Below, piece by piece: positions 4,812 to 63,845 of a DNA stretch of 64,000 nt. The translations under genes and the position numbers were made by a program. The stretch comes from an uncultured bacterium (GTDB taxonomy: Bacteria; Bacillota; Clostridia; Oscillospirales; Ruminococcaceae). Location: NCBI GenBank assembly GCA_905214345.1, contig CAJMLV010000004.1:28168-92167 (forward strand), written 5' to 3'. The notes under the pieces were generated by a model. It ran no database searches. It saw only the letters and a program-made list of their open reading frames with translations, and was not told the DNA's origin. How positions within the stretch are numbered: position 1 is the stretch's first letter; each line of letters opens with the position of its first letter.

Positions 4812-5489
4812 ATGCCGCACATTCTGATCATTGAAGATGATACCGACATCAACAACGCCGTGGCCGAATACCTCACGGCCCGCGGATGCCGCTGTACCCA
4901 GGCGTTTTCCGGCACCGAAGGCCGCTTGTACTGGAAGCAGGGCGGGGCAGACCTGATCATTGCAGACCTGATGCTTCCCGGTCTGACCGGGCAGCAGCTT
5001 CTGGCGGGCATCCGGGGCGAAGACCACAGCAGCGTGCCGGTCATTGTACTGTCCGCCCGTACTGCCTTGCAGGACAAAGTGGAACTGCTGGAACTGGGGG
5101 CCGATGACTATCTGACCAAGCCCTTCTCCTTGCAGGAACTCTGGCTGCGGGTGGGGGTGCAGCTTCGCCATGCGGGGGCTGCCGCGGCACAGCCTTCCCA
5201 TATACAATATAAGGACTGGTCCATCGACCCCGAGACCCGTACCCTGACGGTGAAGGGGGGGCCGGTAGCCCTGACCCTGCACGAATACGAGATCGTGGCC
5301 CTGCTGGCGGCCCGCCCCAAAAAGGTGTTTACCCGGCAGGAAATTTACGAATCCGTCTGGCAGGAACAGGCTTTTGTGGAGGACAAGACCATCAACGTGC
5401 ACATCTCCAACATCCGCGCCAAGCTGCGCCCAACCGGTACCGATGACTATATCAAAACGGTGTGGGGCATAGGGTTCCGGCTGGAATGA
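4812..5489 (+). CDS. OmpR-family response regulator (peptide-antibiotic resistance type)
   Basis: Receiver domain (IIEDD...DLMLP...KPF) plus winged-helix C-terminus. Confidence 0.85.
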   Translation: MPHILIIEDDTDINNAVAEYLTARGCRCTQAFSGTEGRLYWKQGGADLIIADLMLPGLTGQQLLAGIRGEDHSSVPVIVLSARTALQDKVELLELGADDYLTKPFSLQELWLRVGVQLRHAGAAAAQPSHIQYKDWSIDPETRTLTVKGGPVALTLHEYEIVALLAARPKKVFTRQEIYESVWQEQAFVEDKTINVHISNIRAKLRPTGTDDYIKTVWGIGFRLE

Positions 5490-5584
5490 TACGGGCAATC
5501 TTTATTCTTTCTTTATATTTCCTTTGCGATTGTTTGGTCTTTGCCCGGTAGAATAAAGCCATACCAAACAAAGGAGAGGATCAG

Positions 5585-6499
5585 ATGCAAACCGCCGTGC
5601 GAACCCTGGGCCTGTGCAAGTCCTACCGCGGCAAAGCCGCCGTGGATCATCTGGATATGCAGGTGCCGCAGGGCGAAATCTATGGTTTTATCGGTGCCAA
5701 TGGCGCCGGCAAATCCACCACCTTCAAACTGCTGGCAGGGCTGGCCAAACCCACTGCCGGGCAGATCGAAATTTTCGGCCAGCCTTCGGAACAGGGAACC
5801 TTCAGTCGCCGGGTGGGCATCCTCATTGAGGATGCCGGCCTGTACGGGTCACTGTCCGCCAGGGATAACTGCCTGCTGAAAGCCAAACTTCTGGGGCTGG
5901 ACGATGAAAAATCCGCCGTGGACCGGGTGCTGGCCCAGGTAGGCCTGGAAAAGATGGGCAAAAAGGCAGCCAAACGGTTTTCCATGGGGCAGCGCCGTCG
6001 TCTGGGGCTGGCGCTGGCCCTGCTGGGCGATCCGGACCTGCTGTTGTTGGATGAACCTTCCAACGGTCTGGACCCGGAAGGTATCCGGGACGTGCGGCTT
6101 CTGTTGCAGCAGCTGCAGGCCGAACGGGGTGTGACAGTTCTGGTCAGCAGCCACATTCTGGGCGAGCTGGAAAAATTCGCCACCTGTTACGGTATCATTC
6201 GGGACGGCCGCATGGTACAGCAGATCACGGCGGAGGCACTGTCCGCCCAATGCCGGGATTACATTGCCCTGCAGACCCCGGACCCTCACCGTGCGGCGGC
6301 TCTGCTGGAAGAAAAACTGCACCTGCACGACTATACCGTGCGCCCGGAAGGGGAGCTGCGCATCTATGACGCCGCCGACCCCGCCCGGATCAACGCCGCC
6401 TTGCTGGAAGGCGGCGCGGCGGTGCAGTCCATCGGTATCCACCGTCAGGAACTGGAAGATTACTTTTTGCAGATGATGGGGGTGGAAGATCATGTTTGA
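5585..6499 (+). CDS. ABC transporter ATP-binding protein (BcrA / lantibiotic-immunity like)
   Basis: Walker A GANGAGKST, LSGGQ-like signature and Walker B LLLLDEP motifs. Confidence 0.85.
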   Translation: MQTAVRTLGLCKSYRGKAAVDHLDMQVPQGEIYGFIGANGAGKSTTFKLLAGLAKPTAGQIEIFGQPSEQGTFSRRVGILIEDAGLYGSLSARDNCLLKAKLLGLDDEKSAVDRVLAQVGLEKMGKKAAKRFSMGQRRRLGLALALLGDPDLLLLDEPSNGLDPEGIRDVRLLLQQLQAERGVTVLVSSHILGELEKFATCYGIIRDGRMVQQITAEALSAQCRDYIALQTPDPHRAAALLEEKLHLHDYTVRPEGELRIYDAADPARINAALLEGGAAVQSIGIHRQELEDYFLQMMGVEDHV

Positions 6500-7301
6500 A
6501 GTGTTCCGGATGGACTGGTACCGCATGCGGCGGCAGAAGTATCTGCTGACTGCGGTGCTTTTGGGGTTGGGTATGATCGCCCTGGGATATGTTTTTTCGA
6601 CCCTGCTTTCCGACCAGGAAACAGTCAACGCCATGCAGGCACAAGGAGCGGAAATTACTGCCGAAGATATGGTCGACGCCGCCGTGTTCGCGGGTTATAC
6701 CCTGCTGGAGTATATGCATCAGATGCTGTTTGCGGGCGGTTTCTGGGTTTCGATGGTTGCTGTGTTCGGCGGCGTTTTTTGTGCCGAAGATTACACTTCA
6801 GGAGCCGTCAAAAACATCTTTTCCACGCTGGGGTGTCACTGGCCCTATGTGGTGGGACGTGCCCTGTGCCTGCTGGTCTATAATGCACTGCTCATGGCGG
6901 CCTACTTGCTGATCCCCCTGGCCTTGAGCCCGGTGCTGGTGTTTGGCTCGGTAGGTGGTAACCTTATGGGATGGTTGCAGATGTATCTGTCCGCTTGTTT
7001 GGCGGGCTGGGCTATGTCCATGTGCTCGATGTTTCTGTCCACCCTGGTTCGTCGGGAAGGCTGGATGGCGCTGGTCGCCCTGTGTGTGGGAACGGGATTG
7101 CCGGCATTGATGCTGGGATTTGCCTGCCAACTGCTGCACTTGCCGGATCTGACCCGGTTTACCATCTGTGGCTGCGGCCGGATGATCACCCCGGACTTCC
7201 AGCCTATGACGTATCTTCACATTGCGGCGGTATGCCTGGTCTGGGTGGTGGTGTACGGCCTGCTTACCGACCTGTCCCTGCGTAAACGGGACCAGGCGTG
7301 A
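6492..7301 (+). CDS. ABC-2 family permease
   Basis: Polytopic membrane protein. Start overlaps the ATPase stop (ATGTTTGA), indicating translational coupling. Confidence 0.7.
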   Translation: MFEVFRMDWYRMRRQKYLLTAVLLGLGMIALGYVFSTLLSDQETVNAMQAQGAEITAEDMVDAAVFAGYTLLEYMHQMLFAGGFWVSMVAVFGGVFCAEDYTSGAVKNIFSTLGCHWPYVVGRALCLLVYNALLMAAYLLIPLALSPVLVFGSVGGNLMGWLQMYLSACLAGWAMSMCSMFLSTLVRREGWMALVALCVGTGLPALMLGFACQLLHLPDLTRFTICGCGRMITPDFQPMTYLHIAAVCLVWVVVYGLLTDLSLRKRDQA

Positions 7302-7334
7302 TCAAATACTCCTGAACAGGGAAGAGGTGCTTTG

Positions 7335-8231
7335 ATGCTCATTGCCGTGATTCTGCTCTCCTGTGCCGTGGCGATGCTGGCGGTGCTTGTGCTGCGCCTG
7401 CTTTTGCAGTTTTCCGCCTGGGCTGATTGGTTGGAAAACACCCCGCCGGACTCCAACACCCGCCTGTCCGTGTCGGTACGGCTGAAACCGGTGGTGCGGG
7501 CGGCCCGGGCCATCAACGGCAGGCTGGACCAGACCCGGCAGCAGACACTGGACACCTGCAAGGCTGGACAGGAACTGCAGAACACCATGGCAGCCCTCAG
7601 TCACGATATCCGCACACCGCTGGCAGCCGCCTGCGGCCACCTGGAACTGCTGCGCACCGAATCTGACCCGGACGCCCGCGCCCGGCGGCTGGATACGGTG
7701 GAACAGCGCCTGCATGACCTGGAATCCCTGTTGGATGAGATGTTTCTGTATACCCGCCTCAATGCCGGGGAACAGATGCCCATGGACCTTCGCCCGGCGG
7801 TTTTGTGGCCTGCCCTGTGCGAGGTGCTGGCGGCCCTGTACCCCCAGCTGGAGGCAGCCGGCCTGGAACCCCGGTTGGAGTTTACGAATAAAAGCGCCGC
7901 CGTCCTGGCGGACCCCGACGCCCTGGACCGAGTGCTGCGCAACCTGGTGACCAATGCCGTCCAGCATGCAGCGGGCGGATTGACCATCACCCAGACGGCG
8001 GACGGCCTTGTGCTGGAAAATCAGGTGGCGGACCCTTCTGCCATCGACCCGGCTCATCTGTTTGACCGGTTCTGGCGGGCGGACAACGCCCGGCGCAGCG
8101 GCCGCGGCGGGGCGGGGCTGGGACTGGCCATTGTGCGGCAGCTGACCGAAGCGATGAACGGACAGGTGTATGCCGAACTGGAAGGCGATACCTTGCGTAT
8201 CCGCCTGCGTTTGCCGCCTGCCGCCCGTTGA
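7335..8231 (+). CDS. Sensor histidine kinase (intramembrane-sensing type)
   Basis: Short N-terminal TM region, HisKA H-box LSHDIRTPL, and an HATPase_c domain. RBS GAAGAGG. Confidence 0.85.
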   Translation: MLIAVILLSCAVAMLAVLVLRLLLQFSAWADWLENTPPDSNTRLSVSVRLKPVVRAARAINGRLDQTRQQTLDTCKAGQELQNTMAALSHDIRTPLAAACGHLELLRTESDPDARARRLDTVEQRLHDLESLLDEMFLYTRLNAGEQMPMDLRPAVLWPALCEVLAALYPQLEAAGLEPRLEFTNKSAAVLADPDALDRVLRNLVTNAVQHAAGGLTITQTADGLVLENQVADPSAIDPAHLFDRFWRADNARRSGRGGAGLGLAIVRQLTEAMNGQVYAELEGDTLRIRLRLPPAAR

Positions 8232-13751: not shown

Positions 13752-14072
13752 ATGACCTTTGTATCCAGCGCGGCCTTGCTGGACGCCGTTGTGCTGGCCG
13801 TGGTCTCCCAGCAGGCGGAAGGCTCCTACGGGTACCGCATCACCCAGCAGATCAAAGAGGTGCTGGATGTGTCGGAATCCTCGCTGTATCCGGTTTTGCG
13901 CCGCCTGCAAAAGGACCAATGCCTGACCGTGCACGACGAAACCGCCAACGGCCGCAACCGCCGCTATTACCGCATCACAGAACTGGGACTTGTCCGCCTG
14001 CAAGGGTATCAAGATGAATGGCGGGCATACACCAAAAAAATCGACACTTTGTTTTGGGGGGAAACGCCATGA
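13752..14072 (+). CDS. PadR family transcriptional regulator
   Basis: 106 aa winged-HTH with the PadR signature (YGYRITQQI...SLYPVLRRLQ). RBS GGGAG. Confidence 0.85.
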   Translation: MTFVSSAALLDAVVLAVVSQQAEGSYGYRITQQIKEVLDVSESSLYPVLRRLQKDQCLTVHDETANGRNRRYYRITELGLVRLQGYQDEWRAYTKKIDTLFWGETP

Positions 14073-15307
14073 CCAAATACGAATACCTTGCCAAGCTGGA
14101 ACAGCTTTTGTCCGCTATGCCGCAGCAGGAACGCCGGGATGCGCTGGACTATTATGCCGAATATTTTGACGCCGCCGGCCCCGACCATGAGGCCGAGACC
14201 GCCGAAAAACTGGGCGACCCCGAAACGGTGGCCCGCAAGATCCTGGAAGGGGAGGGCCTGACCGGGGAAGAGAACACGGCCGAAGAAACGTCGTCCGCCG
14301 CTTCCGCCGAAGGCAATATCCCGCCGGAAGATCCCGCTGCCGGACCTGTGACCCGCACCGGTCTGCATGGTCCCGGACTGCTGGCCCTCTTTGTGGTCAT
14401 TCTGCTGCTGGTGGCGTTGGCGCTGGCCCTGTCTGCGGGGGCACTCGGTTTCCGGGGCTTTGGTCGTGACCGGGAGATTTCCGCCTCCGGCAGCACTGCC
14501 GCTGTGGCGACCCCGGTCCCCACCGCCGAAGTGCAGGTATCTGAACCCACCCAGTCCCAGACACCGCAGTCTGCCGCCACGGATGACGGTACGGCGTCGG
14601 TGCAGGCTGCTTCCGACTGGGAAACCGCGTATGACATGACCATCAGCAAGGTGGACCTGGAACTCTCCAATGTGGATCTGACCGTGGTGGTGGATGACAG
14701 CGTTTCCGCCGTGACCCTGCGGGGCAGCGGCGTGTCCGATGATGCCCTCCAGGTGAATCAGCAGGAATTGACCCGCAACGCCAAGCTGGAAGTCCGGCTG
14801 ACTGCCGGGGCGACGGACGGTGCCGCCCTGACGCTGGTGCTGCCCGGCAATGCGGTGCCCCGCAGCCTGGAGCTCAAATTGTATGGCGGCAGCGCTGTTG
14901 TGCCGGATATGACCCTGGATGAGCTGGAAGTAGACTCCCTTGCTTCTGTGGTCACGGTGGGGAATATTACCGCACGCCAGGTGGAATTGCAGGAAGAATC
15001 CGACGGAACGGTAACGGCTGCCGCAGTCACGGCGGATGAAATCTCCCTGAATGCGACCCGCGGCAGCGTTACGGCGGACCAGGTCAAGGTCGGCCGCCAG
15101 CTGGAAGTGGATGTGGAAGGCGGCAATGCCACCGTCACCGTGCAAGGAAAAGCAGCTGACTTTTACCTGGAAACCGAGAATGAGAACGGTACCCTGACGG
15201 TGGACGGAGAGGAAAAAATCGGTAAGACATCCCAGCCCGGCAACACCGGTGTTTCCATTGAAGTGGACTGCCAGGGCGGCACAGCCAACCTGAGCTTCAC
15301 CGGCTGA
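14069..15307 (+). CDS. DUF1700-TM-DUF4097 envelope protein (PadR-associated putative adhesin/stress sensor)
   Basis: N-terminal DUF1700 motif (YLAKLEQLL...ERRDALDYYAEYF), one TM helix, and C-terminal beta-repeat DUF4097. Start overlaps the padR stop (ATGA). Confidence 0.75.
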   Translation: MTKYEYLAKLEQLLSAMPQQERRDALDYYAEYFDAAGPDHEAETAEKLGDPETVARKILEGEGLTGEENTAEETSSAASAEGNIPPEDPAAGPVTRTGLHGPGLLALFVVILLLVALALALSAGALGFRGFGRDREISASGSTAAVATPVPTAEVQVSEPTQSQTPQSAATDDGTASVQAASDWETAYDMTISKVDLELSNVDLTVVVDDSVSAVTLRGSGVSDDALQVNQQELTRNAKLEVRLTAGATDGAALTLVLPGNAVPRSLELKLYGGSAVVPDMTLDELEVDSLASVVTVGNITARQVELQEESDGTVTAAAVTADEISLNATRGSVTADQVKVGRQLEVDVEGGNATVTVQGKAADFYLETENENGTLTVDGEEKIGKTSQPGNTGVSIEVDCQGGTANLSFTG

Positions 15308-38281: not shown

Positions 38282-38506
38282 ATGCAGAAAAAGGAAATCG
38301 ACCGCATCAACGAACTGGCACACAAGGCCAAGACCGAAGGCCTGACCGAAGCTGAAACCGCCGAGCGGGATGAACTGCGCCGCCGGTACATTGCGGACAT
38401 CCGTGCCGCCGTGCAGGATCAGCTGGCCCACACCATTGTGGAGGAACCGGACGGTACCCGCCATCCGCTGCTGAAAAAGGGGGGCGGCCAGGGTGCCGGA
38501 AGTTAA
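38282..38506 (+). CDS. DUF896/UPF0291 family small protein (YnzC-like)
   Basis: 74 aa (IDRINELAHKAKTEGLTEAE...RRYI). Confidence 0.7.
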   Translation: MQKKEIDRINELAHKAKTEGLTEAETAERDELRRRYIADIRAAVQDQLAHTIVEEPDGTRHPLLKKGGGQGAGS

Positions 38507-38519
38507 GAGCAGAATCGGC

Positions 38520-40166
38520 ATGACCCATCGCGTGGGGGCGGCGCTGCCCTGGCTGTGGCTGGCCGGTGCCTGGGCATTCGGTGTGGTGTTCATGCTGCTG
38601 TACGGACGCTCTCTTCTGGACAGCGACATGGCTTCCGAGATGGTCCTGGCGGCGCAGCTCAACCGGGAAGGCGGTTTCCTGTCCTCTGCCTGGTACTATT
38701 CCACCGAGTTGAGGGTGTTCTGCCAGCAACTGCTGTTCAAGCTGGGGTTGTGGGTGTTCCCGCAGAACTGGCACGCAGCCCGCACCCTCGCGCAGGCGAT
38801 CCTGTCGGCGCTGACGGCGGCATCCGCATTGTACTTTCTGTATGGTGCTTCGCTGCGCAAAAGTGCGCCCTGGCTGGCGGGAATCCTTTTGTGTCCCTTC
38901 GGCTTCTGGCAGCTGTTCCACTGTGTGTTCGGCGGCTTTTACTTCGTGCACATGATCTTTGTCATGCTCAGCATGGGGCTGGTTCTCCGCCTGGTGCGGC
39001 AGACCGGCACGACCCGCCGCAAGGTGCTGCGTGTTGTACTGCTGGCGGCGCTGGCCTTTGCGGCCGGACTCAACGGTGTGCGGATTCTGATGAATTTGTA
39101 CGCGCCGCTGGCAGCTGCCGCTCTGGTCATGCTGGCCTGGCGCTGGCATGCCGCGCCTCTGCGGCGGCCCCGCTCGGTGCCCCGGGTGCGGTTTGCGGCC
39201 GCATCTTTGTGGGCGGCGGTGTGGGCACTGGCCGGTTATGCGGTCAATGCAGGGGCGCTTGCCGGACAGTATACTTTTTCCGACCAGGGGCAGCGCGGCT
39301 GGACTTCGCTGGATTTTTCCCGTCTGCTGACCACCTGGGCAGATTTTCTGGCTTTGTTCGGTTATCCCGGTGACAGGGGAGCCCTGGACTATACCGACCC
39401 TGTTCCGCTGTTCAGCACGGTCGGACTGCTGGGGGCGGTGGGCCTGCTCATCGCCCTGGTCCTCATTGCAGCCACGGTGCAGCTGGTGCGCTGCCGCCGT
39501 GATCTTTGCTTTGAGCATGGTGCGGTACTGGCGGTGTTTCTTTCCTGCCTGCTGGTGGACGGCATGGCTTTTGCCTTTCTGAATGATATGATCGGCATCA
39601 ACGGAAGCTACTGGCTGCCGGTGGTGCCTCTGGCGCTGGCAGTGCTGGGCGTGGCAGGGGAGAACGTCCCCCTTCGTAAGGGCTTGCCCCGGCGGGGGTT
39701 GGCTTTGGGCCTTGCGGCGGCGTTTGTCTGCGTCAGCATCTCCACCACTCTGCGTTTTGTGGAGGAACCGCCCCGGGGGGACCCGCACCTGGAAACGATC
39801 AGCGATTGGCTGGTGGAAAACGGCTATACCCAGGGGTACGCTACCTTCTGGTACGGCAATGTGCTTACTGAATTGTCCGACGGACAGCTGGAGATCTGGA
39901 CGGTGGACGACATGACCCGGATGAACCTGCATGAGTGGCTGCAAAGCTGCGAGCACCAGAACCCGCCCCAGGGAGAGGTCTTTCTCCTCATCGATCCCAC
40001 CGTGGCGCGGGAAAACCTGGCATACGGGAAAAGCGCCCGTGTGGTATATGAAGATGACTACGGTTTCATGATACTGGCTGCGCCGGAAGCCGAACCCCTG
40101 GTAAAGGCGTCCCAGGCGGCGGAAGCAGCCCGTGTCGCACTAAACGCACAAAATGCGCAAAAATAA
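38520..40166 (+). CDS. Large polytopic membrane protein with C-terminal extracytoplasmic domain (unknown function, GT-C-like topology)
   Basis: About 10 TM helices followed by a soluble domain of about 150 aa. Start is ambiguous: GTG at 38493 or ATG at 38520. Coupled to the DUF896 gene. Confidence 0.5.
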   Translation: MTHRVGAALPWLWLAGAWAFGVVFMLLYGRSLLDSDMASEMVLAAQLNREGGFLSSAWYYSTELRVFCQQLLFKLGLWVFPQNWHAARTLAQAILSALTAASALYFLYGASLRKSAPWLAGILLCPFGFWQLFHCVFGGFYFVHMIFVMLSMGLVLRLVRQTGTTRRKVLRVVLLAALAFAAGLNGVRILMNLYAPLAAAALVMLAWRWHAAPLRRPRSVPRVRFAAASLWAAVWALAGYAVNAGALAGQYTFSDQGQRGWTSLDFSRLLTTWADFLALFGYPGDRGALDYTDPVPLFSTVGLLGAVGLLIALVLIAATVQLVRCRRDLCFEHGAVLAVFLSCLLVDGMAFAFLNDMIGINGSYWLPVVPLALAVLGVAGENVPLRKGLPRRGLALGLAAAFVCVSISTTLRFVEEPPRGDPHLETISDWLVENGYTQGYATFWYGNVLTELSDGQLEIWTVDDMTRMNLHEWLQSCEHQNPPQGEVFLLIDPTVARENLAYGKSARVVYEDDYGFMILAAPEAEPLVKASQAAEAARVALNAQNAQK

Positions 40167-43000: not shown

Positions 43001-43054
43001 CCCGTGCCCTGCCAGACGGCAGGCACCAAAGCTGAACAGAAAGGATGTTTCCCC

Positions 43055-44230
43055 ATGGATTACAATGCCGCTGCCCTTGCCATGCACAAAGCCAACCGTG
43101 GCAAACTGACCGTCAACAGCCTGGTGGAAGTTCGGGACAAGGATGCCCTGTCCACCGCCTATACCCCCGGCGTGGCAGAACCCTGCCGCAAGATCAAGGA
43201 AAACCCAGACAACGTCTACACCTATACCCTCAAGGGCCGCACGGTGGCGGTGGTCACCAACGGCACCGCGGTGCTGGGCCTGGGCAACATCGGCCCCGAA
43301 GCCGGCCTGCCTGTCATGGAGGGCAAGTGTGTCCTGTTCAAGGAATTCGGCGGTGTGGATGCGTTCCCCATCTGCCTGAACGCCAAGACCAAAGAAGAAG
43401 TGGTGGCAACTGTCAAGGCCATCGCTCCTACTTTCGGCGGCATCAATCTGGAGGACATCCGCAGCCCCGAATGTTTTGAGATCGAAGCCGAGCTGGAACG
43501 GGATCTGGACATTCCCGTGTTCCATGACGACCAGCACGGCACCGCCATCATCGTGCTGGCAGGTGTGCTCAACGCCCTGAAGGTGGTGGGCAAGCGCATC
43601 GAAGACATCCGCATCGTCCAGAATGGCCCCGGTGCTGCCGGTACTGCCATCATCAAGATGCTGCAGACCGCAGGCGCCAAGGACATCATCGCCGTGGATG
43701 AACACGGCATCCTGGTGCCCGGCCGTCCTGCCGGGTTCGAGGGCCACAAGGCAGCCCTGGCCGAATCCACCAACCCCCGCCGTGTTACCGGCGGTCTGGC
43801 CGAGGCCATCCGCGGCGCCGACCTCTTCATCGGCACCTCCATTGCAGGCGCACTTACCCCCGAACTGGCCGCCACCATGGCTCCGGATGCCATCGTTTTT
43901 GCTATGGCAAACCCCACCCCTGAGATCATGCCCGACGCCGCCAAGGCAGCCGGTGTGCGCATCATCGGCACCGGCCGCAGCGACTTCCCCAACCAGGTCA
44001 ACAACGTGCTGGCCTTCCCCGGCATCTTCAAGGGCGCGTTGTCTGTCCGCGCTCGGGACATCAATGCCGATATGAAGCTGGCCGCCGCCAAGGCTATTGC
44101 CGACCTCATTCCGGATGAGGAACTGAACGAAGAGAACATCCTGCCCAAAGCCTTTGATCCCCGTGTGGCACAGGCTGTGGCCGACGCTGTGGCGAAAGCC
44201 GCACGGGAAAGCGGCGTGGCCCGGGCATGA
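43055..44230 (+). CDS. NAD(P)-dependent malic enzyme (short type)
   Basis: Malic enzyme N-terminal and NAD-binding domains (GNIGPEAGLPVMEGK). Confidence 0.85.
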   Translation: MDYNAAALAMHKANRGKLTVNSLVEVRDKDALSTAYTPGVAEPCRKIKENPDNVYTYTLKGRTVAVVTNGTAVLGLGNIGPEAGLPVMEGKCVLFKEFGGVDAFPICLNAKTKEEVVATVKAIAPTFGGINLEDIRSPECFEIEAELERDLDIPVFHDDQHGTAIIVLAGVLNALKVVGKRIEDIRIVQNGPGAAGTAIIKMLQTAGAKDIIAVDEHGILVPGRPAGFEGHKAALAESTNPRRVTGGLAEAIRGADLFIGTSIAGALTPELAATMAPDAIVFAMANPTPEIMPDAAKAAGVRIIGTGRSDFPNQVNNVLAFPGIFKGALSVRARDINADMKLAAAKAIADLIPDEELNEENILPKAFDPRVAQAVADAVAKAARESGVARA

Positions 44231-45075
44231 AGATTCGCGAAATAGAAGCCGCCGCCATCACCGAAGCGGTGGAACGGCTGTGCATCCAGGCCAACCTTTG
44301 CCTGCCCCAGGACATCCGCGCCGCCGAGGAAGCGGCCATCGCGGCGGAACCCTGGCCTCTGGCCCGCAACACCCTGGAACTGCTGCGCTCCAATCTGGAT
44401 GCTGCCGCCGAAAAGGAACTGCCCATCTGCCAGGACACCGGCATGGCCTGTGTGTTTGTGGAGCTGGGCCAGGATGCCCACATCACCGGCGGCACCCTGC
44501 AGGATGCGGTGGATGAAGGTGTGCGCCGCGGCTACACAAAGGGTTACCTGCGCAAAAGCATCACCGGCGACCCGCTCAACCGCCGGAACACCGAGGACAA
44601 CACCCCGGCATTTCTGACCGTGGACCTGGTTCCCGGGGACGGTTGCCGCATCACGGTGGCGCCCAAGGGCGCCGGCAGCGAGAACATGAGCCGCCTGGCC
44701 ATGCTCAAGCCTGCCGACGGTGTGCAGGGCGTCAAGGACTTTGTGCTGGAAACTGTCCGCATGGCCGGTTCCAATCCCTGCCCGCCCATCATCCTGGGCG
44801 TGGGTGTGGGCGGCAGCTTCGACAAGTGCGCCCTGCTGGCCAAACATGCGCTGCTGCGCCCGCTGGATCGCCCCAACCCCGACCCTTATTATGCAGCGCT
44901 GGAAAAGGAGCTCTGCGATGCCATCAACGCTCTGGGCATCGGCCCCCAGGGCTTCGGCGGTGCCACCACCTGCCTGGGTGTTGCCATTGAACAGGCGCCC
45001 ACCCATGTGGCTTGCCTGCCGGTGGCGGTGAACATCGGCTGCCACGTTACCCGCCGGGCCACGGCGGAACTGTGA
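44227..45075 (+). CDS. fumA: Class I fumarate hydratase / Fe-S hydro-lyase alpha subunit
   Basis: Fumarate_lyase_N-type Fe-S hydro-lyase family (CQDTGMA ... GGSF). Start overlaps the malic enzyme stop. Confidence 0.8.
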   Translation: MKIREIEAAAITEAVERLCIQANLCLPQDIRAAEEAAIAAEPWPLARNTLELLRSNLDAAAEKELPICQDTGMACVFVELGQDAHITGGTLQDAVDEGVRRGYTKGYLRKSITGDPLNRRNTEDNTPAFLTVDLVPGDGCRITVAPKGAGSENMSRLAMLKPADGVQGVKDFVLETVRMAGSNPCPPIILGVGVGGSFDKCALLAKHALLRPLDRPNPDPYYAALEKELCDAINALGIGPQGFGGATTCLGVAIEQAPTHVACLPVAVNIGCHVTRRATAEL

Positions 45076-45307: not shown

Positions 45308-45871
45308 ATGCAGTATGAACTTCACACGCCCCTCACCCGGGAATCTCTGGCGCAGCTGAAAGCAGGGGATACGGTGCTGCTTTCCGGTACGGTCTACACC
45401 GCGCGGGATGCGGCCCACGGCCGTATGATGGAACTGCTGGATGAAGGCAAGGCGCTGCCCTTTGATATTCAGGGCGCCGCTGTTTACTATGTAGGCCCCA
45501 CCCCCGAACGTCCGGGGCAGGTCATCGGCGCCGCAGGTCCCACCACTGCGGGACGGATGGATAAATTCACTCCCCGGCTGCTGGACCTGGGCCTTGCCTG
45601 CATGATCGGCAAAGGCAAACGGGACGCCGCTGTGAAAGAATCAGTGGTCAAAAACGGTGCGGTTTACCTGGCCGCGCTGGGGGGAGCCGGTGCCTTGATG
45701 GCTGCCAGCATCCAGAGCTGTGAGGTCATCGCCTGGCCTGATCTGGGCTGCGAAGCCGTCCGCCGTCTGACCGTGAAGGAGATGCCCCTGACTGTTCTGC
45801 TGGATGCCCACGGTGGGGACCTGTACGAAAGCGGTCCCGCCGCCTACCTGCAAAGCCGCTCTGCCGATTGA
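45308..45871 (+). CDS. fumB: Class I fumarate hydratase beta subunit
   Basis: Fe-S hydro-lyase beta family (GTVYTARDAAH ... CMIGKGKR). Confidence 0.8.
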   Translation: MQYELHTPLTRESLAQLKAGDTVLLSGTVYTARDAAHGRMMELLDEGKALPFDIQGAAVYYVGPTPERPGQVIGAAGPTTAGRMDKFTPRLLDLGLACMIGKGKRDAAVKESVVKNGAVYLAALGGAGALMAASIQSCEVIAWPDLGCEAVRRLTVKEMPLTVLLDAHGGDLYESGPAAYLQSRSAD

Positions 45872-45907
45872 CAAAACGCCCGCCGCTTGGTACACTGTTG
45901 TGTATTG

Positions 45908-45991
45908 AGCGGATATGGCGGAACTGGCAGACGCGCTGGTTTTAGGGTCCAGTGTCCATGACGTGCAGGTTCGATTCCTGTTATCCGCACC
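45908..45991 (+). tRNA. tRNA-Leu (anticodon UAG)
   Basis: 84 nt with a long variable arm and GGTTCGATTCC T-loop. Anticodon loop TTTAGGG. Encoded CCA. Confidence 0.85.
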
Positions 45992-46031
45992 AATCGCCGC
46001 AGGCAAGTATCCGCCTGCGGCGATTTTTTTG
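45992..46031 (+). terminator. tRNA-Leu terminator
   Basis: ATCGCCGCAGGC-aagtatc-GCCTGCGGCGAT followed by TTTTTTT. Confidence 0.85.
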
Positions 46032-46279: not shown

Positions 46280-46309
46280 TTGACTACTGTCCGATGAAAT
46301 CACTATAAT
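46280..46309 (+). promoter_or_regulatory. perR sigma-70 promoter
   Basis: TTGACT, 18-nt spacer, TATAAT. Confidence 0.6.
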
Positions 46310-46313
46310 GATT

Positions 46314-46328
46314 TTAGAATGATTCTAA
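46314..46328. promoter_or_regulatory. Per box (PerR/Fur-type 7-1-7 operator)
   Basis: Perfect palindrome TTAGAATGATTCTAA, 5 nt downstream of the -10. Confidence 0.7.
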
Positions 46329-46347
46329 AAATGGTGCTGATGAGAAA

Positions 46348-46725
46348 ATGACCAAATACGCAAAAAAGATATGGGAAATCGTGGAATCATCCTACAGTCA
46401 TATGACAGCGGAGCAGATTTTTGAGGAGCTGCGCAAGACATACCCCAAGGTGGTGCTGGCTACGGTGTACAACAACCTGAACCGCCTGTGGGAGGAGGAT
46501 AAGATCCGCAAAATATCGGTGGAGGGGATGCCCGACCGATACGACCGGACCCGGCGGCACGACCATCTGGTATGCAAAAAGTGCGGCAGATTGCTGGATG
46601 TGGACCTGGGCGACCTGACGGCCCAGCTGACGGGGAAAGCAGGCGTTCCCATCCTGTCCTATGACCTGAAACTGTTGTATGTGTGCGAGGAATGCAGAAA
46701 ACAATCCCAACAGAAAGGAATGTGA
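46348..46725 (+). CDS. perR: Fur family peroxide-responsive repressor (PerR-like)
   Basis: 125 aa Fur fold with two CxxC pairs (CKKCG ... CEEC). Confidence 0.8.
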
Positions 46726-48782
46726 TGAATCTGAAACATCTGCCCTTATCGGTTCGCGTCCCCATTGAGGAAAATAACCCCAGCATTGTCCGTTGGGAAG
46801 AAAAGTGCATCCGGTGCGGCCTTTGCAAAGAAGTCTGTACCAATCTCATGGGGGTGCACGGCACCTATACCCTGGAAGAAACCGGCGGCAAGGCGGTCTG
46901 TATCTACTGCGGCCAGTGCGCCAATGTCTGCCCTGTGGACAGCATCACCGAGCGGGACGAATGTCCCCAGGTACGGCAGGCGGTGGCCGACCCGGATAAG
47001 GTGGTGGTCGTCAGTACTTCGCCCTCGGTGCGTGCGGCCCTGGGGGAAGAGTTCGGCATGGAACCCGGCGCGTTTGTGGAGGGCAAAATGGTGGCATTGC
47101 TCCGTGCCCTGGGTGCGGATTATGTGCTGGACACCAATTTTGCCGCCGACCTGACCATCGTGGAGGAAGCCAGCGAGCTCATCCGCCGCATCAAGGAACA
47201 GGACAAGCCCTTGCCGCAATTCACCAGCTGCTGCCCCGGCTGGGTGCACTTTGCGGAGATCTACGCCCCGGAACTGCTGCCTCATCTTTCCACTGCAAAA
47301 AGTCCCATCGGTATGCAGGGCCCAACGGTCAAAACCTACTTTGCCAAACAGATGGGCATTGACCCCGAAAAGATCGTTCATGTGGCCCTCACACCATGTA
47401 CTGCCAAAAAGTTTGAGATCCGGCGGGAGGAAATGCACGCCGCTGGTGACTATCACGGAGTGGCGGGCATGCGGGACACCGACCAGGTCATCACCACCCG
47501 GGAACTGGCCCGGTGGGCCAAGGAAGCGGGCGTTGACTGGAACACTCTGGAAGATTCGGCCTACGATTCCCTCATGGGCAAGGCGTCCGGCGCCGGTGTC
47601 ATCTTCGGCAACACCGGCGGCGTGATGGAAGCTGCTCTGCGCACCGCATACTCTTACCTGACCGGGCGGGAAGCGCCGGAAGCGTTGCTGCAGCTGAACC
47701 CCGTCCGCGGTTATGAAGGCGTGCGGGAAGCGGCGGTAGACATCAACGGACTGACTTTGCAGGTGGCGGTGGTGTACGGCACCGCCAACGCCCGGACTTT
47801 CCTTGCCCGGATGAAAGAAACCGGCAAGCAGTACCACTTTGTGGAAGTGATGGCGTGCCCCGGCGGCTGCATTGGCGGCGGGGGACAGCCCAAAGATCCC
47901 ATGAAGGATGCCGACGAAGTCCGCAAGAGCCGCATTGCGGCGCTCTACCGCAGGGACGAAGGAATGACCCTGCGTACCAGCCACGAAAACCCCGAAATCA
48001 AGGCAGTGTACGAAGCGTTCTACGGTCAGCCTCTCAGTGAGATGGCGGAGAAAATGCTCCACACCACCTATCAGGATTGCAGCAACATCATACAGAGAAA
48101 GGATGACAAAACAATGAGCAAATGGAAATGCAAGATCTGCGGTTATATCTATGAGGGCGAGACCCTGCCCGAAAACTTCACCTGCCCCATCTGCCGGCAG
48201 CCTGCTTCCGCTTTTGAGAAGATCGAGGAAGCGCCTGTTCAGGGCAGCGGCAAATATGCCGGTACCCAGACCGAAAAGAATCTGCAGGCCGCTTTTGCCG
48301 GGGAGTCCCAGGCACGCAACAAGTACACCTATTTTTCCGATGTGGCAAAACGCGAAGGCTATGAGCAGATCGCGGCCCTCTTCCTGCAGACGGCGGAAAA
48401 CGAAAAGGCCCATGCAAGACTCTGGTTTGAGGAACTGAACGGCGTGGGTGACACGGCCAAGAACCTGCTGCATGCCGCAGAGGGGGAAAACTACGAGTGG
48501 ACCGACATGTACGACGGTTTTGCCAAGACTGCCGAGGAAGAAGGCTTCCCGGAACTGGCGGCCAAGTTCCGTCTGGTGGCTGCTATCGAAAAGCGTCACG
48601 AGGAGCGTTACCGTGCCCTGCTGCGCAATGTGGAGACCGCGCAGGTCTTTGAAAAGAGCGAAGTCAAGGTGTGGGAATGCCGCAACTGCGGCCACATCGT
48701 GGCGGGCACCGCCGCTCCCGAAGTGTGCCCCACCTGCAATTACAGCAAGAGCTTCTTTGAAATCTCCAGCGACAATTATTAA
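46725..48782 (+). CDS. [FeFe]-hydrogenase fused to C-terminal rubredoxin and rubrerythrin domains
   Basis: Two N-terminal 4Fe-4S motifs. H-cluster motifs [15 protein letters not shown] and [15 protein letters not shown] rubredoxin domain (CKICGY...CPICRQP). A ferritin-like diiron rubrerythrin with a C-terminal CRNCGH...CPTCNY. The ATG overlaps the perR stop (TGATG). Confidence 0.85.
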
Positions 48783-48821: not shown

Positions 48822-48871
48822 AGCCGAGAGGCGGCAGACTTTGCGTCTGCCGCCTCTCGGCTGTTGTTTTT
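48822..48871. terminator. Bidirectional terminator
   Basis: Perfect 18-bp stem AGCCGAGAGGCGGCAGAC-tttgc-GTCTGCCGCCTCTCGGCT followed by a T-run. Confidence 0.85.
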
Positions 48872-48883
48872 GAATCGGGTTGC

Positions 48884-50351: not shown

Positions 50352-50435
50352 TGGTGCGGAAGATGGGACTTGAACCCACACGTCATGGACACACGCACCT
50401 CAAACGTGCCTGTCTGCCGATTCCAGCACTTCCGC
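50352..50435 (-). tRNA. tRNA-Leu (anticodon GAG)
   Basis: 84 nt with a long variable arm and GGTTCAAGTCC T-loop. Anticodon loop TTGAGGT. Encoded CCA. Confidence 0.85.
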
Positions 50436-57341: not shown

Positions 57342-57442
57342 CAAAAGGAATCCGCCGCAGGCTTTTTGCCCGCGACGGATTTTGTCTGCAATATTTCGAC
57401 CCTTCCTGCACATACTGAGGTATGGAAAAGGAGGGGAACCCC

Positions 57443-58684
57443 ATGCCCAAACACCCTGCAAGACGCTGGATGCGCCGTATACTGGGGACATTGATGCTGT
57501 CCGGAGCCCTTTTGGCCGTTGCCGTACTGGGTCTGCGTGCCGCGCTGCCCGATACCTTTTATGTGGAACCCGGCACCTCGCTCACTCTGGCAGCCATGCC
57601 CTTCCTGAAGGCAGGGAGTACACCGCAAGGGGCTGCAGCTGCGGTCAGCGGCACCGCTGATACCGGCAGCGCCAACCGGACTCTGCGCTTGTTCGGTCTG
57701 GTACCGGTCAAGACGGTGCGCACGGTGGAATCCGAGACCCGCACCGTCACCGTGTCCGGAGCGCCCTTTGGGGTCAAGATGTTTGCCGACGGGGCATTGG
57801 TGGTGGCTTTCTCCGATCAGGTCACCGAACTCGGCACCGAAAACCCCGCCAAGGAGGCCGGGCTTCGCCTGGGCGATGTGATCGTGTCGGCAGGCGGGAA
57901 CCCTGTCCACGGCAACGAGGAATTGTCTGCAGCCATCACGGCAGCGCAGGGCGGCGGTGTGGCGATCGTCTATCTTCGGGACGGGGTACAGCACACCTGC
58001 ACCGTCACCCCTGTGCGTGACCGGGACACCGGCGCCTGGCGGGCCGGGGTGTGGGTGCGGGATTCTTCGGCAGGTATCGGGACCCTTACCTTCGTGGATA
58101 CACAGAAAGGCACCTTTGCGGGCCTGGGACACGCAGTCAGTGACAGCGATACCGGTGCCGATTTTCCGCTGCTGTCCGGCGAGATCGTCCCCGTTACCAT
58201 CCTCGGGGTACAAAAGGGAGCCGCAGGTGCACCGGGCGAACTGCGCGGCGAGTTTTCCGGCGAGGCGGCCCTGGGAGTGGTGACCGCCAACGATACCGCC
58301 GGTGTATATGGCCGGCTGAACGGCAGCGCCTCATCGGCATCGGGGCAGCTGATGCCGGTGGCGCGGATGCAGCAGGTAGCGGTGGGGGAGGCCCAGATCC
58401 TGACCACCATCGACGGCACCCAACCAAAGTTGTATGATGTGACCATTGAGCGGGTGAACATGACCGCAAACGATCCCAACCGCAATCTTCTTATCCGTGT
58501 GACCGATCCGGACCTGCTTTCCGCCACCGGCGGCATTGTGCAGGGGATGAGCGGCAGCCCTGTTATCCAGAACGGCTGCCTGGTGGGGGCGGTGACCCAT
58601 GTGCTGGTCAATGATCCCACAAGGGGCTACGGTATCTTTGCGGAAAATATGCTCAAGACGGCGGATGCGCTGGTAACGGATTGA
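57443..58684 (+). CDS. spoIVB: Stage IV sporulation protein B (SpoIVB, S55 peptidase)
   Basis: N-terminal TM anchor, a PDZ domain, and the S55 catalytic motif GMSGSPV. RBS AAGGAGGGG. Confidence 0.85.
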   Translation: MPKHPARRWMRRILGTLMLSGALLAVAVLGLRAALPDTFYVEPGTSLTLAAMPFLKAGSTPQGAAAAVSGTADTGSANRTLRLFGLVPVKTVRTVESETRTVTVSGAPFGVKMFADGALVVAFSDQVTELGTENPAKEAGLRLGDVIVSAGGNPVHGNEELSAAITAAQGGGVAIVYLRDGVQHTCTVTPVRDRDTGAWRAGVWVRDSSAGIGTLTFVDTQKGTFAGLGHAVSDSDTGADFPLLSGEIVPVTILGVQKGAAGAPGELRGEFSGEAALGVVTANDTAGVYGRLNGSASSASGQLMPVARMQQVAVGEAQILTTIDGTQPKLYDVTIERVNMTANDPNRNLLIRVTDPDLLSATGGIVQGMSGSPVIQNGCLVGAVTHVLVNDPTRGYGIFAENMLKTADALVTD

Positions 58685-61651: not shown

Positions 61652-62551
61652 ATGCTCGGCTTTTACGACTTTTTCGGCGGTGTGATCAGCAACCTGCGTA
61701 CCTTTGGTGTGCGCGATCTGGTGGACATCCTGGTCATTACCGTTGCATTTTATGAACTGTTTCTGTTCGCAAAGAAATCCCGCGCGGGTCAGCTGGTTCG
61801 CGGCCTGATCCTGGCGCTGATCTGTTTTGCGCTGGCATATCTGTTTGAGCTGCGTACCGTGCGCTGGCTGCTGAACAACTTCCTGCAGGTGGGCTTCATC
61901 GCCGCCGTGGTGCTGTTCCAGCCGGAACTGCGCCGCACCCTGGAACGCCTGGGCCAGAGCGCCAACTGGACCGGACGCCTGTTCAGCATCCGCCGCAACG
62001 ACCCCTCTCTGCGGGCGGTGTGGCAGAGCGCTGTGGTAGCCATCTGCGATGCTGCGGAGCAGCTGTCCGACACCCGCACCGGTGCCCTGATGGTGCTGGA
62101 ACGCAACAACAATCTGGAAGAGATCATCCGTACCGGCACGCCTCTTTCTGCCAACGTCATCCCCGAAATGCTTGGTACCATCTTTTATGAAGGTACCCCC
62201 CTGCACGACGGCGCCGTGGTCATCCGCGACGGGCGCATTGTGGCGGCCGGCTGTGTGCTGCCCCTTTCCAACAACCTGGAAATGGGCAAAGATATGGGTA
62301 CCCGCCATCGTGCGGGCCTGGGTATGAGCGAGAACTCCGATGCCGTGGTCATCGTTGTCAGCGAGGAAACCGGCATCATCTCCCTGGCCAAAAACGGCGT
62401 TCTCATCCGCCGCCTGGACCGCCAGAACCTGTTCAATCTGCTGCAGGAGGAGATCATCCCGCCCGAAACGCAAGAGGAGCAGAAGGTGTCTGTGTGGAAC
62501 CGGTTGTTTGGCAAAGGAGGTGCCGTAAAGCATGCCGCTCAGAAAAAATAA
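61652..62551 (+). CDS. cdaA: Diadenylate cyclase CdaA (DacA)
   Basis: Three N-terminal TM helices plus a DAC domain (DGA, RHRAGLG motifs). RBS AAGGAGG. Confidence 0.9.
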   Translation: MLGFYDFFGGVISNLRTFGVRDLVDILVITVAFYELFLFAKKSRAGQLVRGLILALICFALAYLFELRTVRWLLNNFLQVGFIAAVVLFQPELRRTLERLGQSANWTGRLFSIRRNDPSLRAVWQSAVVAICDAAEQLSDTRTGALMVLERNNNLEEIIRTGTPLSANVIPEMLGTIFYEGTPLHDGAVVIRDGRIVAAGCVLPLSNNLEMGKDMGTRHRAGLGMSENSDAVVIVVSEETGIISLAKNGVLIRRLDRQNLFNLLQEEIIPPETQEEQKVSVWNRLFGKGGAVKHAAQKK

Positions 62552-63845
62552 ACCCGAACAGACCGCCATGGAACCCAAAAAGAGGGAGCGGCGCACAGTG
62601 TGGGATTATCCCGCGGTGCTGTGGTGCGCGGCGGTGGCCTGTGCCGTGCTGGCCTGGTTGATCGTGACCATGTATTTCGACCAGGAAAGCGACAAGACCG
62701 TAACGGTCAGCAACATCACCTATACCTACCAGTCCAGCACGTACAGCAGTCTTGGCCTGGACATCGTGGAAACCCCGGAGATTTCCGGCGTGACCGTGCG
62801 CATCAAGGGCAGCGGCACCATCATCGGCGGTATCCGGGAAAGCGACATCATGGTCTATCCCAAATACTCCACCGTCCGCGGCGCGGGCACCGTCACCCTG
62901 GAACTGGGGGCACGGTTCATCACCTCGGATTACGATAACCTGGGCATTGAGCTCATCGTGGAAAACCCCACCACCGTGACCGTGGTGTTTGATAACGTCA
63001 GCGAAAAGACCATGCGGGTCACTGCCGATACTTCTCAGATCGCCATTGCCGATGGGTTTATCCTGAACAGCGTGTCCAGCGTCCCGGCGGAAGTCACCCT
63101 CACCGGTCCCACCAGCGAGCTGGAACAGATCGACTCGGTGGTGGCCACCGTTACCAGCGAGGAGGAACTCAGCGACTCTGTTACCCTGGAAGCTCCTCTG
63201 GAAATGCGGGATGCCAACGGCAATGTGGTCACGCCGCAGTATACCACCATGGACAGCGACACCGCTGCCATTACCTTGAATGTACTGCAGGTAAGGGAAC
63301 TTCCGCTGACCGTAAACTTCATCGGTCTGCCTTCCGGATTTGATGAGTCCAGCCTGAAGTACTCCCTGGACCGCAGCACCCTGCGCGTAGCCGGACCTGC
63401 CCGTACCATCAGCAAGATGAACGAGCTGAGTGTGGCCAGCCTGGATCTGGGCCAGAGCTTTGCTTTTGACCGGGACTACCAGCTCTCGGTGGAACTGCCT
63501 GACGGTATCGTGTCCCAGGACGGCATCACTACCGTGACCCTGACCTTCGATACCACCAACATGGCCAGCACTACCCTGAATATCTCCAACATCCGGGTCA
63601 TCAATGTGCCCAGCGACATGGAAGTGGATGTGCTCACCAGCCGTATCAGCGGCGTGACCCTGTACGGACCTGCCGACGAGATCGAGGAACTTTCCGCCGA
63701 GAATGTCCAGGCCCAGGTGGATTGTCAGAGCATCTCGGTCACGGCCGGGCAGCAGACCCTGCCGGTCACCATCCAGATCCCGTCGTCCAGCCGCATTTTC
63801 GCGGTGGGCAGCTACACGGTGCAGTGCGCCATCACCACCCAGTAA
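62532..63845 (+). CDS. cdaR: CdaA regulatory protein CdaR (YbbR-like domain repeats)
   Basis: N-terminal TM helix and four YbbR-like beta domains. Start overlaps the cdaA 3' end. RBS AAAGGAGGTG. Confidence 0.85.
   Translation: MPLRKNKPEQTAMEPKKRERRTVWDYPAVLWCAAVACAVLAWLIVTMYFDQESDKTVTVSNITYTYQSSTYSSLGLDIVETPEISGVTVRIKGSGTIIGGIRESDIMVYPKYSTVRGAGTVTLELGARFITSDYDNLGIELIVENPTTVTVVFDNVSEKTMRVTADTSQIAIADGFILNSVSSVPAEVTLTGPTSELEQIDSVVATVTSEEELSDSVTLEAPLEMRDANGNVVTPQYTTMDSDTAAITLNVLQVRELPLTVNFIGLPSGFDESSLKYSLDRSTLRVAGPARTISKMNELSVASLDLGQSFAFDRDYQLSVELPDGIVSQDGITTVTLTFDTTNMASTTLNISNIRVINVPSDMEVDVLTSRISGVTLYGPADEIEELSAENVQAQVDCQSISVTAGQQTLPVTIQIPSSSRIFAVGSYTVQCAITTQ

Follow-up and report, generated by a model that had tools for sequence, protein, structure and literature searches.

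We have analyzed a stretch of 64,000 nucleotides (nt) of contig CAJMLV010000004.1 from an uncultured Ruminococcaceae bacterium, hereafter called the window, which carries a gene for a fusion of an [FeFe] hydrogenase with a rubrerythrin (Rbr). We consider it very probable, judging from the sequence, that this gene, hydR, encodes a HydR-type enzyme, that is, an H2:H2O2 oxidoreductase. The assignment to HydR is made on architecture and motifs, and the predicted protein carries all the sequence-level features by which the family is recognized. The [FeFe] hydrogenase-rubrerythrin class was reportedly predicted by Meyer in 2007 and by Calusinska in 2010. A sub-class with a 'rubredoxin-rubrerythrin-rubredoxin' domain was listed by Land et al. 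in 2019 (PMC6984386). The enzyme class itself is already known, its architecture, cofactors, direction and function having been published in 2025 for CperHydR (CPF_1076, UniProt A0A0H2YR94) from Clostridium perfringens. This enzyme is an H2-dependent H2O2 reductase, and in the same work the name HydR was given to the architecture and its prediction was credited to Calusinska et al. (Taylor et al., JACS 2025; PMC11926857).

Domain architecture of the window protein

The hydR open reading frame (ORF) spans 46683..48782 on the forward (+) strand, and its true start is the ATG at 46725, giving a product of 685 amino acids (aa) followed by the stop codon. This start agrees with the homologues, with the ribosome-binding site AAAGGA (46714-46719) and with independent gene calls, and the same 685-aa product was called independently on four public contigs. 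The gene and its parts are as follows.

46725..48782, + strand: hydR, [FeFe] hydrogenase-rubrerythrin fusion; 685 aa, stop codon included in the coordinates
46806..46934, + strand: ferredoxin-like domain; two [4Fe-4S] motifs, corresponding to the F-clusters of M2-type hydrogenases; weak Fer4 Pfam matches
46998..47882, + strand: H-cluster domain (aa 92-386, Pfam bounds); Fe_hyd_lg_C 2e-92
47223-47243, + strand: H-cluster motif L1, TSCCPGW, at aa 167
47391-47417, + strand: H-cluster motif L2, TPCTAKKFE, at aa 223 (PCTAKK at aa 224)
47844-47891, + strand: H-cluster motif L3, from aa 374, extending 9 nt beyond the Pfam boundary
47913..48077, + strand: small-subunit-like C-terminal tail of the hydrogenase (aa 397-451); Fe_hyd_SSU 1.1e-21
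48120..48218, + strand: first rubredoxin-like Fe(Cys)4 domain; CKIC at 469, CPIC at 487; RUBY_RBDX
48276..48623, + strand: rubrerythrin four-helix diiron domain; Pfam Rubrerythrin 2.8e-24
48672..48761, + strand: second (C-terminal) rubredoxin-like Fe(Cys)4 domain; RUBY_RBDX at aa 650-679, aligning to the Rbr C-terminal domain of 1RYT and 9FJ2

An earlier note on this DNA had read two ferredoxin-like clusters, a full H-cluster domain, a rubredoxin and a rubrerythrin diiron domain from the letters, and a check of the motifs found each of them at its place. Its description of the clusters as two CxxCxxCxxxCP motifs needs one correction. Both motifs are present, the second as C59-x2-C62-x2-C65-x3-C69-P, but the first, C28-x2-C31-x2-C34-x3-C38, is followed by T and not by P. 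These N-terminal clusters align with the FS4A/FS4B region of CpI and DdH, as is demanded of the M2 type. In the H-domain, HydR enzymes are recognized by L1 of the form TSCCPxW, L2 of the form (M/T)PCxxKxxE and L3 of the form ExMACxxGCxxGGGQP, and all three forms were found in the window protein.

The note had also counted two separate rubredoxin-type centers, and this count holds. The first rubredoxin-like (Rd) site consists of C469, C472, C487 and C490, and the second of C652, C655, C668 and C671 (CRNC at 652, CPTC at 668). Both are short domains of the rubrerythrin type, PF21349 (CxxC-x12/14-CxxC), and not canonical rubredoxins of PF00301; the Pfam match to RUBY_RBDX (1.3e-20) was split over these two stretches. 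Between them lies the diiron domain with the ligands E527, E560xxH563, E588xxE591 and E622xxH625, which align to the ligand columns of D. vulgaris rubrerythrin (DvRbr). The predicted diiron site is thus flanked on either side by a putative rubredoxin-type site, as expected of HydR.

The hydrogenase tail is joined to the first Rd by a short linker of about 15 residues (aa 452-466, nt 48078-48122). This linker is the chief length-variable region among the homologues, which range from 653 to 766 aa with most at 683-717 aa, and it is of low confidence in the AlphaFold2 (AF2) model described below.

Profile matches and ligand conservation

The domain matches of the window protein are far above chance. 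It passed the NCBIfam cut-off for group A [FeFe] hydrogenases (TIGR02512, 476.9 bits vs 405.95) and that for the rubrerythrin equivalog (NF045767, 262.2 bits vs 200), with Rbr fused C-terminally to HydA in one polypeptide. Among PDB structures, the N-terminal 450 residues matched CpI, the D. desulfuricans hydrogenase and the catalytic subunits of HydABC and HDCR with E values of 1e-108 to 2e-120. The C-terminal part matched rubrerythrins, with E values of 1e-65 for 9FJ2 and 1e-45 for D. vulgaris Rbr. Since the top PDB match was a HydABC subunit, we also considered the electron-bifurcating or NADH-dependent class (A3/A6, NF040763), which we rejected. The protein scored 557 bits against a cut-off of 765 for this model, and the match begins at model position 133, indicating that the N-terminal domains of that class are absent. 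No HydB/HydC (NuoE/NuoF-like) partners were found among the neighbours of hydR.

Conservation was read from an alignment of 38 homologues of 80-96% identity, in which 28 of the 28 predicted metal ligands were invariant. The invariant set comprises the eight F-cluster cysteines, C170, C225, C378 and C382 of the H-cluster together with the proton-relay C169, the eight rubredoxin cysteines and the seven diiron ligands. By comparison, the non-ligand cysteines C80 and C452 vary. Within L2, residues 223-229 and E231 do not vary, and F230 hardly does. Loss of H-cluster ligand cysteines in a careful alignment would have spoken against the hydrogenase assignment, and they were retained. Because the H-cluster ligands are invariant across the aligned homologues, we consider that the active site is under selection.

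The protein is also widely distributed. An identical (100%) protein is present in public metagenome data, and more than 120 clusters matched at 63-99% identity, nearly all of them full-length and sharing its Pfam architecture. The few named clusters belong to Anaeromassilibacillus and Gemmiger formicilis and are labelled 'rubrerythrin' by NCBI. A scan of species-representative genomes yielded hundreds of relatives, with full-length ones in Flavonifractor (85% identity), Oscillospiraceae, Lawsonibacter, Lachnospiraceae and others. The related loci come from genomes of 24-65% GC.

Comparison with known enzymes

CperHydR and the window protein showed the same domain order of two [4Fe-4S] clusters, H-domain, Rd, Rbr and Rd. 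Both have L1, L2 and L3, with an identical L2 (TPCTAKKFE), as well as the diiron ligands and a pair of Fe(Cys)4 sites. They also share a 13-residue deletion in an Rbr loop that predicts a homodimer. The hosts differ: the window comes from a spore-former of high GC content (about 59%), and the named relatives nearest to it are gut genera of the Oscillospiraceae type, e.g., Flavonifractor, Gemmiger and Anaeromassilibacillus. For CperHydR, all cofactors were confirmed by electron paramagnetic resonance (EPR) and Fourier-transform infrared (FTIR) spectroscopy, and H2-driven H2O2 reduction proceeded at 442 +/- 120 per min (PMC11926857). The enzyme is O2-sensitive, its hydrogenase domain being degraded by O2, and it gave no H2-evolution current, even without the Rbr domain (PMC11926857).

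The H2-uptake [FeFe] hydrogenase II of C. pasteurianum (CpII) is similar, by its published description, in its M2-type F-clusters and its uptake-type L2, in which Thr and Ala replace Met353 and Ser357 of CpI (PMC11926857). The corresponding residues of the window protein are T223 and A227. CpII differs in that it lacks a rubredoxin/rubrerythrin extension and retains some H2 evolution. Stand-alone rubrerythrins (D. vulgaris 1RYT/1B71, P. furiosus 2HR5/3MPS, and 9FJ2) align over their full length, including the diiron ligands and the C-terminal CxxC-x12-CxxC, and the short-loop form of the window Rbr resembles that of P. furiosus (PfRbr). Compared with them, the window protein has, N-terminal to its diiron domain, an additional Rd-like domain, and the attached hydrogenase replaces the external donor system of NAD(P)H and rubredoxin.

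Direction, electron path and dimer

The earlier note had left it open whether H2 is oxidized to reduce peroxide or the reverse. Considering that CperHydR gave no H2-evolution current and that the window protein has the same uptake-type L2, we regard this question as closed by analogy: H2 would be oxidized to reduce peroxide. By textbook values, a large potential drop separates the H2 couple from the rubrerythrin centers and the H2O2/H2O couple, and for this reason the reaction should run effectively one way. Taken together, the uptake-type L2, the published electrochemistry and this potential drop leave, in our view, only this sense as plausible.

In the proposed mechanism, the H-cluster would split H2, and the electrons would travel via both [4Fe-4S] F-clusters and then the rubredoxin-like Fe(Cys)4 centers to the rubrerythrin diiron site, where H2O2 would be reduced to water. 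The first rubredoxin-like domain is the proposed relay from the F-clusters to the rubrerythrin, and the order of use of the two Rd centers is presumed. In this account, cofactor content, activity and direction are taken from the published homologue CperHydR, and architecture, ligand conservation, loop deletion, operon and operator conservation come from the present analysis.

In known rubrerythrin dimers, the hop from the Fe(Cys)4 center to the diiron site takes place across the subunit interface. Compared with 1RYT/1B71 in a HMMER alignment, the window Rbr lacks 13 residues of the helix B/C loop, a loop that is present in D. vulgaris Rbr. CperHydR has the same deletion and is modelled as a homodimer, since the four-helix bundle of its diiron site could close only between two chains (PMC11926857). 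By this comparison, the window enzyme most likely works as a homodimer with a domain-swapped four-helix bundle. Since the shortened loop would force a diiron site built from two chains, the last transfer steps probably cross the subunit interface. The wholly intramolecular path from H-cluster through FeS and Rd to the diiron site, which the earlier note suggested, can therefore be kept as the chain proposed for CperHydR, but its last step is probably an inter-subunit one.

The perR-hydR operon

hydR stands second in a self-contained operon of two genes, which has the following elements in addition to hydR itself.

46280..46309, + strand: sigma-70-type promoter, TTGACT - 18 nt - TATAAT; 11 of 12 consensus positions
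46312..46330, no strand: perfect 9-1-9 palindrome TTTTAGAAT-G-ATTCTAAAA, predicted PerR/Fur-family operator; arms 100% complementary
46314-46328, no strand: 7-1-7 core TTAGAATNATTCTAA of the predicted operator, inside the palindrome
46348..46725, + strand: PerR-like Fur-family regulator gene, 125 aa; Pfam FUR 6.2e-20 (72 bits vs 23.1)
48822..48872, + strand: intrinsic terminator, 18-bp stem with 13 GC pairs and a T-run, ending the perR-hydR operon

The TGA stop of the regulator gene overlaps the ATG of hydR by 1 nt (TGATG). The best PDB match of the regulator is B. subtilis PerR (2FE3). By manual count on the 2FE3 alignment, nine positions of this protein (BsPerR), namely H37, D85, H91, H93, D104 and the four Zn cysteines, are matched by H18, D66, H71, H73, the Asp in LLDVD, C76, C79, C113 and C116 of the regulator. 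Among the NCBIfam models, those for PerR rank above those for Fur, Zur and Irr. Since its scores stay below the cut-offs of the PerR models, we call the regulator PerR-like and do not assign it as an equivalog.

The AT-rich inverted repeat TTAGAATGATTCTAA (46314-46328) starts 5 nt past the -10 box and shows the 7-1-7 pattern of a PerR operator that overlaps its own promoter. Its core TTAGAATNATTCTAA occurs only once in the window. Seven other genomes carry the exact 15-nt core in the corresponding place, between the -10 box and the Fur gene; in five it belongs to Fur-hydR operons (loci L001, L002, L003, L005 and L010) and in two to Fur-rbr operons (L018 and L079). The core was also present in the promoter region of a further Fur-rbr locus (L066), and with one mismatch in L022, L046 and L078, which brings the count to 11 other loci in all. 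Similar -35 and -10 boxes stand at the same position in most related loci. An adjacent Fur gene was found in 7 of the 13 full-length fused loci.

The hydR neighbourhood (fumarase, MATE, TrkAH) differs between genera, and the genes that flank the cassette in the window are not conserved beside hydR in other genera. Since the wider neighbourhood is not kept, we consider the two-gene cassette to be the conserved unit. hydR would be co-transcribed with the PerR-type peroxide sensor, which probably represses by binding the predicted operator over the transcription start. In this case, the enzyme would be made when peroxide appears; we infer both the PerR binding and the induction. A similar arrangement is rbr1-perR of C. 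difficile, a PerR-repressed and self-regulated rubrerythrin operon (PMC8546684). There, too, a Fur-family sensor and a rubrerythrin-type peroxidase share an operon with autoregulation via a promoter palindrome, which for the window is a prediction, but the peroxidase of the window carries its own hydrogenase. The published account of CperHydR, in contrast, mentions neither PerR nor an operon (PMC11926857). The conserved PerR-type operon and operator would thus be a small addition to a known enzyme, with the regulatory link suggested by the genetic arrangement.

Alternative explanations

Several observations weigh against the reading of the window protein as an H2-dependent peroxidase that is made in response to peroxide. 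A search by radical-SAM and P-loop motifs and by NCBIfam models gave no hydE, hydF or hydG gene in the 64 kb window, and none in the 6-10 kb around hydR at 18 related loci. The only radical-SAM ORF of the window is HemW (554-1636, - strand), and no HydF-type GTPase was found in the 64 kb. The likeness to CperHydR was read from architecture and motifs, and not from percent identity. The O2 sensitivity of CperHydR fits awkwardly with a role in stress defence. The regulator scored below the NCBIfam cut-offs for PerR equivalogs (70.9 vs 200 and 68.4 vs 180), and about half of the full-length hydR loci have no adjacent Fur gene. Lastly, the AF2 model of the full protein, built from the 38-sequence alignment, reached a predicted local distance difference test (pLDDT) score of 55.7 and a predicted template modeling (pTM) score of 0.45, and is too poor for a fold search or for inter-cofactor distances. 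The published AF3 model of the CperHydR dimer is similarly weak, with a pTM of 0.41 (PMC11926857).

If the lack of hydE, hydF and hydG in the window and in the flanks of the related loci meant that the host has no maturases, the H-cluster would stay unassembled. The protein would then be a ferredoxin-fed FeS/Rd-rubrerythrin peroxidase, with the hydrogenase domain as a scaffold. We consider this hardly conceivable. The four H-cluster cysteines, the proton-relay Cys169 and L1-L3 are invariant in the 38 homologues, which implies selection on a working active site, and the related loci span genomes of 24-65% GC. Also, hydA often lies apart from the maturase genes, and the 64 kb cover only a small share of a genome. 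An ordinary ferredoxin-linked, H2-evolving fermentative hydrogenase, in which Rbr would only shield its own H-cluster from peroxide by using reduced ferredoxin and not H2, seems very improbable to us as well. The sequence does fall in group A with the prototypical M2 enzymes, and its distal F-cluster could still dock ferredoxin. However, the invariant L2 is of the uptake type of CpII and CperHydR (T223, A227), CperHydR shows no H2-evolution current even when freed of its Rbr domain, and the gene stands behind a regulator of the peroxide-sensor type and not among fermentation genes.

The physiological acceptor could also be O2, or O2 together with H2O2, so that the enzyme would be an H2-dependent oxidase scavenging oxygen to water. 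Such oxygen scavenging is reported for clostridial reverse rubrerythrins. The diiron/Rd module is of the rubrerythrin kind, and for some rubrerythrins an oxidase activity is reported besides that of a peroxidase; PerR-type regulation would suit O2 stress equally well. On the other hand, H2O2 reduction is the sole activity measured in the family, O2 degrades the hydrogenase domain of CperHydR, and the sequence does not discriminate between O2 and H2O2. We consider O2 as the acceptor unlikely, and H2-dependent reduction of H2O2 remains our preferred reading.

Modularity of the Rd-Rbr-Rd unit

Residues 456-685 of the window protein, which form the Rd-Rbr-Rd unit, matched proteins in many genomes at 65-75% identity. 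In five loci (L026, L030, L039, L052 and L053), the unit stands alone as a protein of about 225 aa headed by the same first Rd domain. In L021 (5512-6690, 393 aa), it is fused to a Flavin_Reduct domain, as confirmed by Pfam, and L024 and L028 have an N-terminal sequence similar to that of this fusion. In L018 (4806-5987) and L064 (7488-8669), it is preceded by an N-terminal [4Fe-4S] ferredoxin-like (Fer4) domain and a helical region, in a protein of 394 aa.

The hydrogenase fusions vary as well. In two proteins, P0015 (746 aa) and P0021 (766 aa), an additional canonical rubredoxin (PF00301) stands between the hydrogenase and Rd-Rbr-Rd, giving three Rd centers, and in the L012 variant the middle Rd domain is absent. 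L064 has a fusion of HydA, rubredoxin and RUBY_RBDX without the diiron domain (5465-7498), followed by a separate Fd-Rd-Rbr-Rd gene. Unfused but adjacent genes for hydA (430-500 aa) and rubrerythrin (180-190 aa) occur in either order in L013, L014, L016 and L019 (match regions about 5600-8000), and in L014 and L019 the pair stands directly behind a Fur-family gene.

Based on this fusion and fission (Rosetta-stone) evidence, we consider the hydrogenase to be one of several interchangeable electron-input modules for the rubrerythrin peroxidase. A broader proposal can be drawn up, to which we give roughly even chances. In this proposal, perR-hydR would be a self-contained, peroxide-inducible cassette, widespread in gut Clostridia and moving between genomic contexts; a part of the 'group A1' [FeFe]-hydrogenase genes that gut surveys count as those of H2 producers would then encode H2-consuming antioxidant enzymes, and Rd-Rbr-Rd would be a plug-in terminal peroxidase on interchangeable inputs, namely a hydrogenase, a flavin reductase or a ferredoxin-like domain.

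Significance

HydR is abundant outside the pathogenic clostridia, with more than 120 clusters at an identity of at least 63% and hundreds of genomes, apparently mostly of gut-associated Clostridia, and it is often labelled only 'rubrerythrin' by NCBI. The conserved PerR-type regulator and operator may supply the link to peroxide-stress regulation that is missing from the biochemical paper. Also, surveys that count all group A1 [FeFe] hydrogenases as H2 producers may miscount the H2-consuming HydR. One example of such a survey makes no mention of rubrerythrin (PMC12578642). As a discovery, the window enzyme carries little weight, the class having been published for CperHydR in 2025, and the additions are the operon and operator, the wide distribution and the modular Rd-Rbr-Rd.

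Genomic surroundings

Two tRNA-Leu genes, at 45909-45992 (+ strand, anticodon TAG) and 50352-50435 (- strand, anticodon GAG), bracket the segment of perR, hydR and MATE. The TAG gene is equipped with a promoter-like site (45868-45896) and a terminator (45992-46025) of its own. Considering the position of the cassette between two tRNA-Leu genes, a genomic island was a candidate, and neighbours that differ between genera would suit it. We did not adopt this reading; the GC content is only slightly lower, at 0.56-0.58 against about 0.59, and no mobility genes were seen in the immediate neighbourhood of the cassette.

Directly upstream of the cassette lies a split class I (Fe-S) fumarate hydratase with its alpha and beta subunits at 44227-45075 and 45308-45871, adjoined by an NAD(P)-malic enzyme (43004-44230). 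On related contigs, a 66-aa ORF is called between the fumarate hydratase subunits. The class I Fe-S dehydratases are oxidant-sensitive enzymes.

Elsewhere in the window, the ORFs at 14018-15307, 38493-40166 and 62532-63845 (+ strand; 429, 557 and 437 aa) have a coding-like GC content at third codon positions (GC3) and gave no NCBIfam match at 1e-10; for the 557-aa ORF, no Pfam match is recorded in the public gene calls either. A gene for the SpoIVB peptidase at 57422-58684 (+ strand), which scored 350 bits (cut-off 305), identifies the host as an endospore former.

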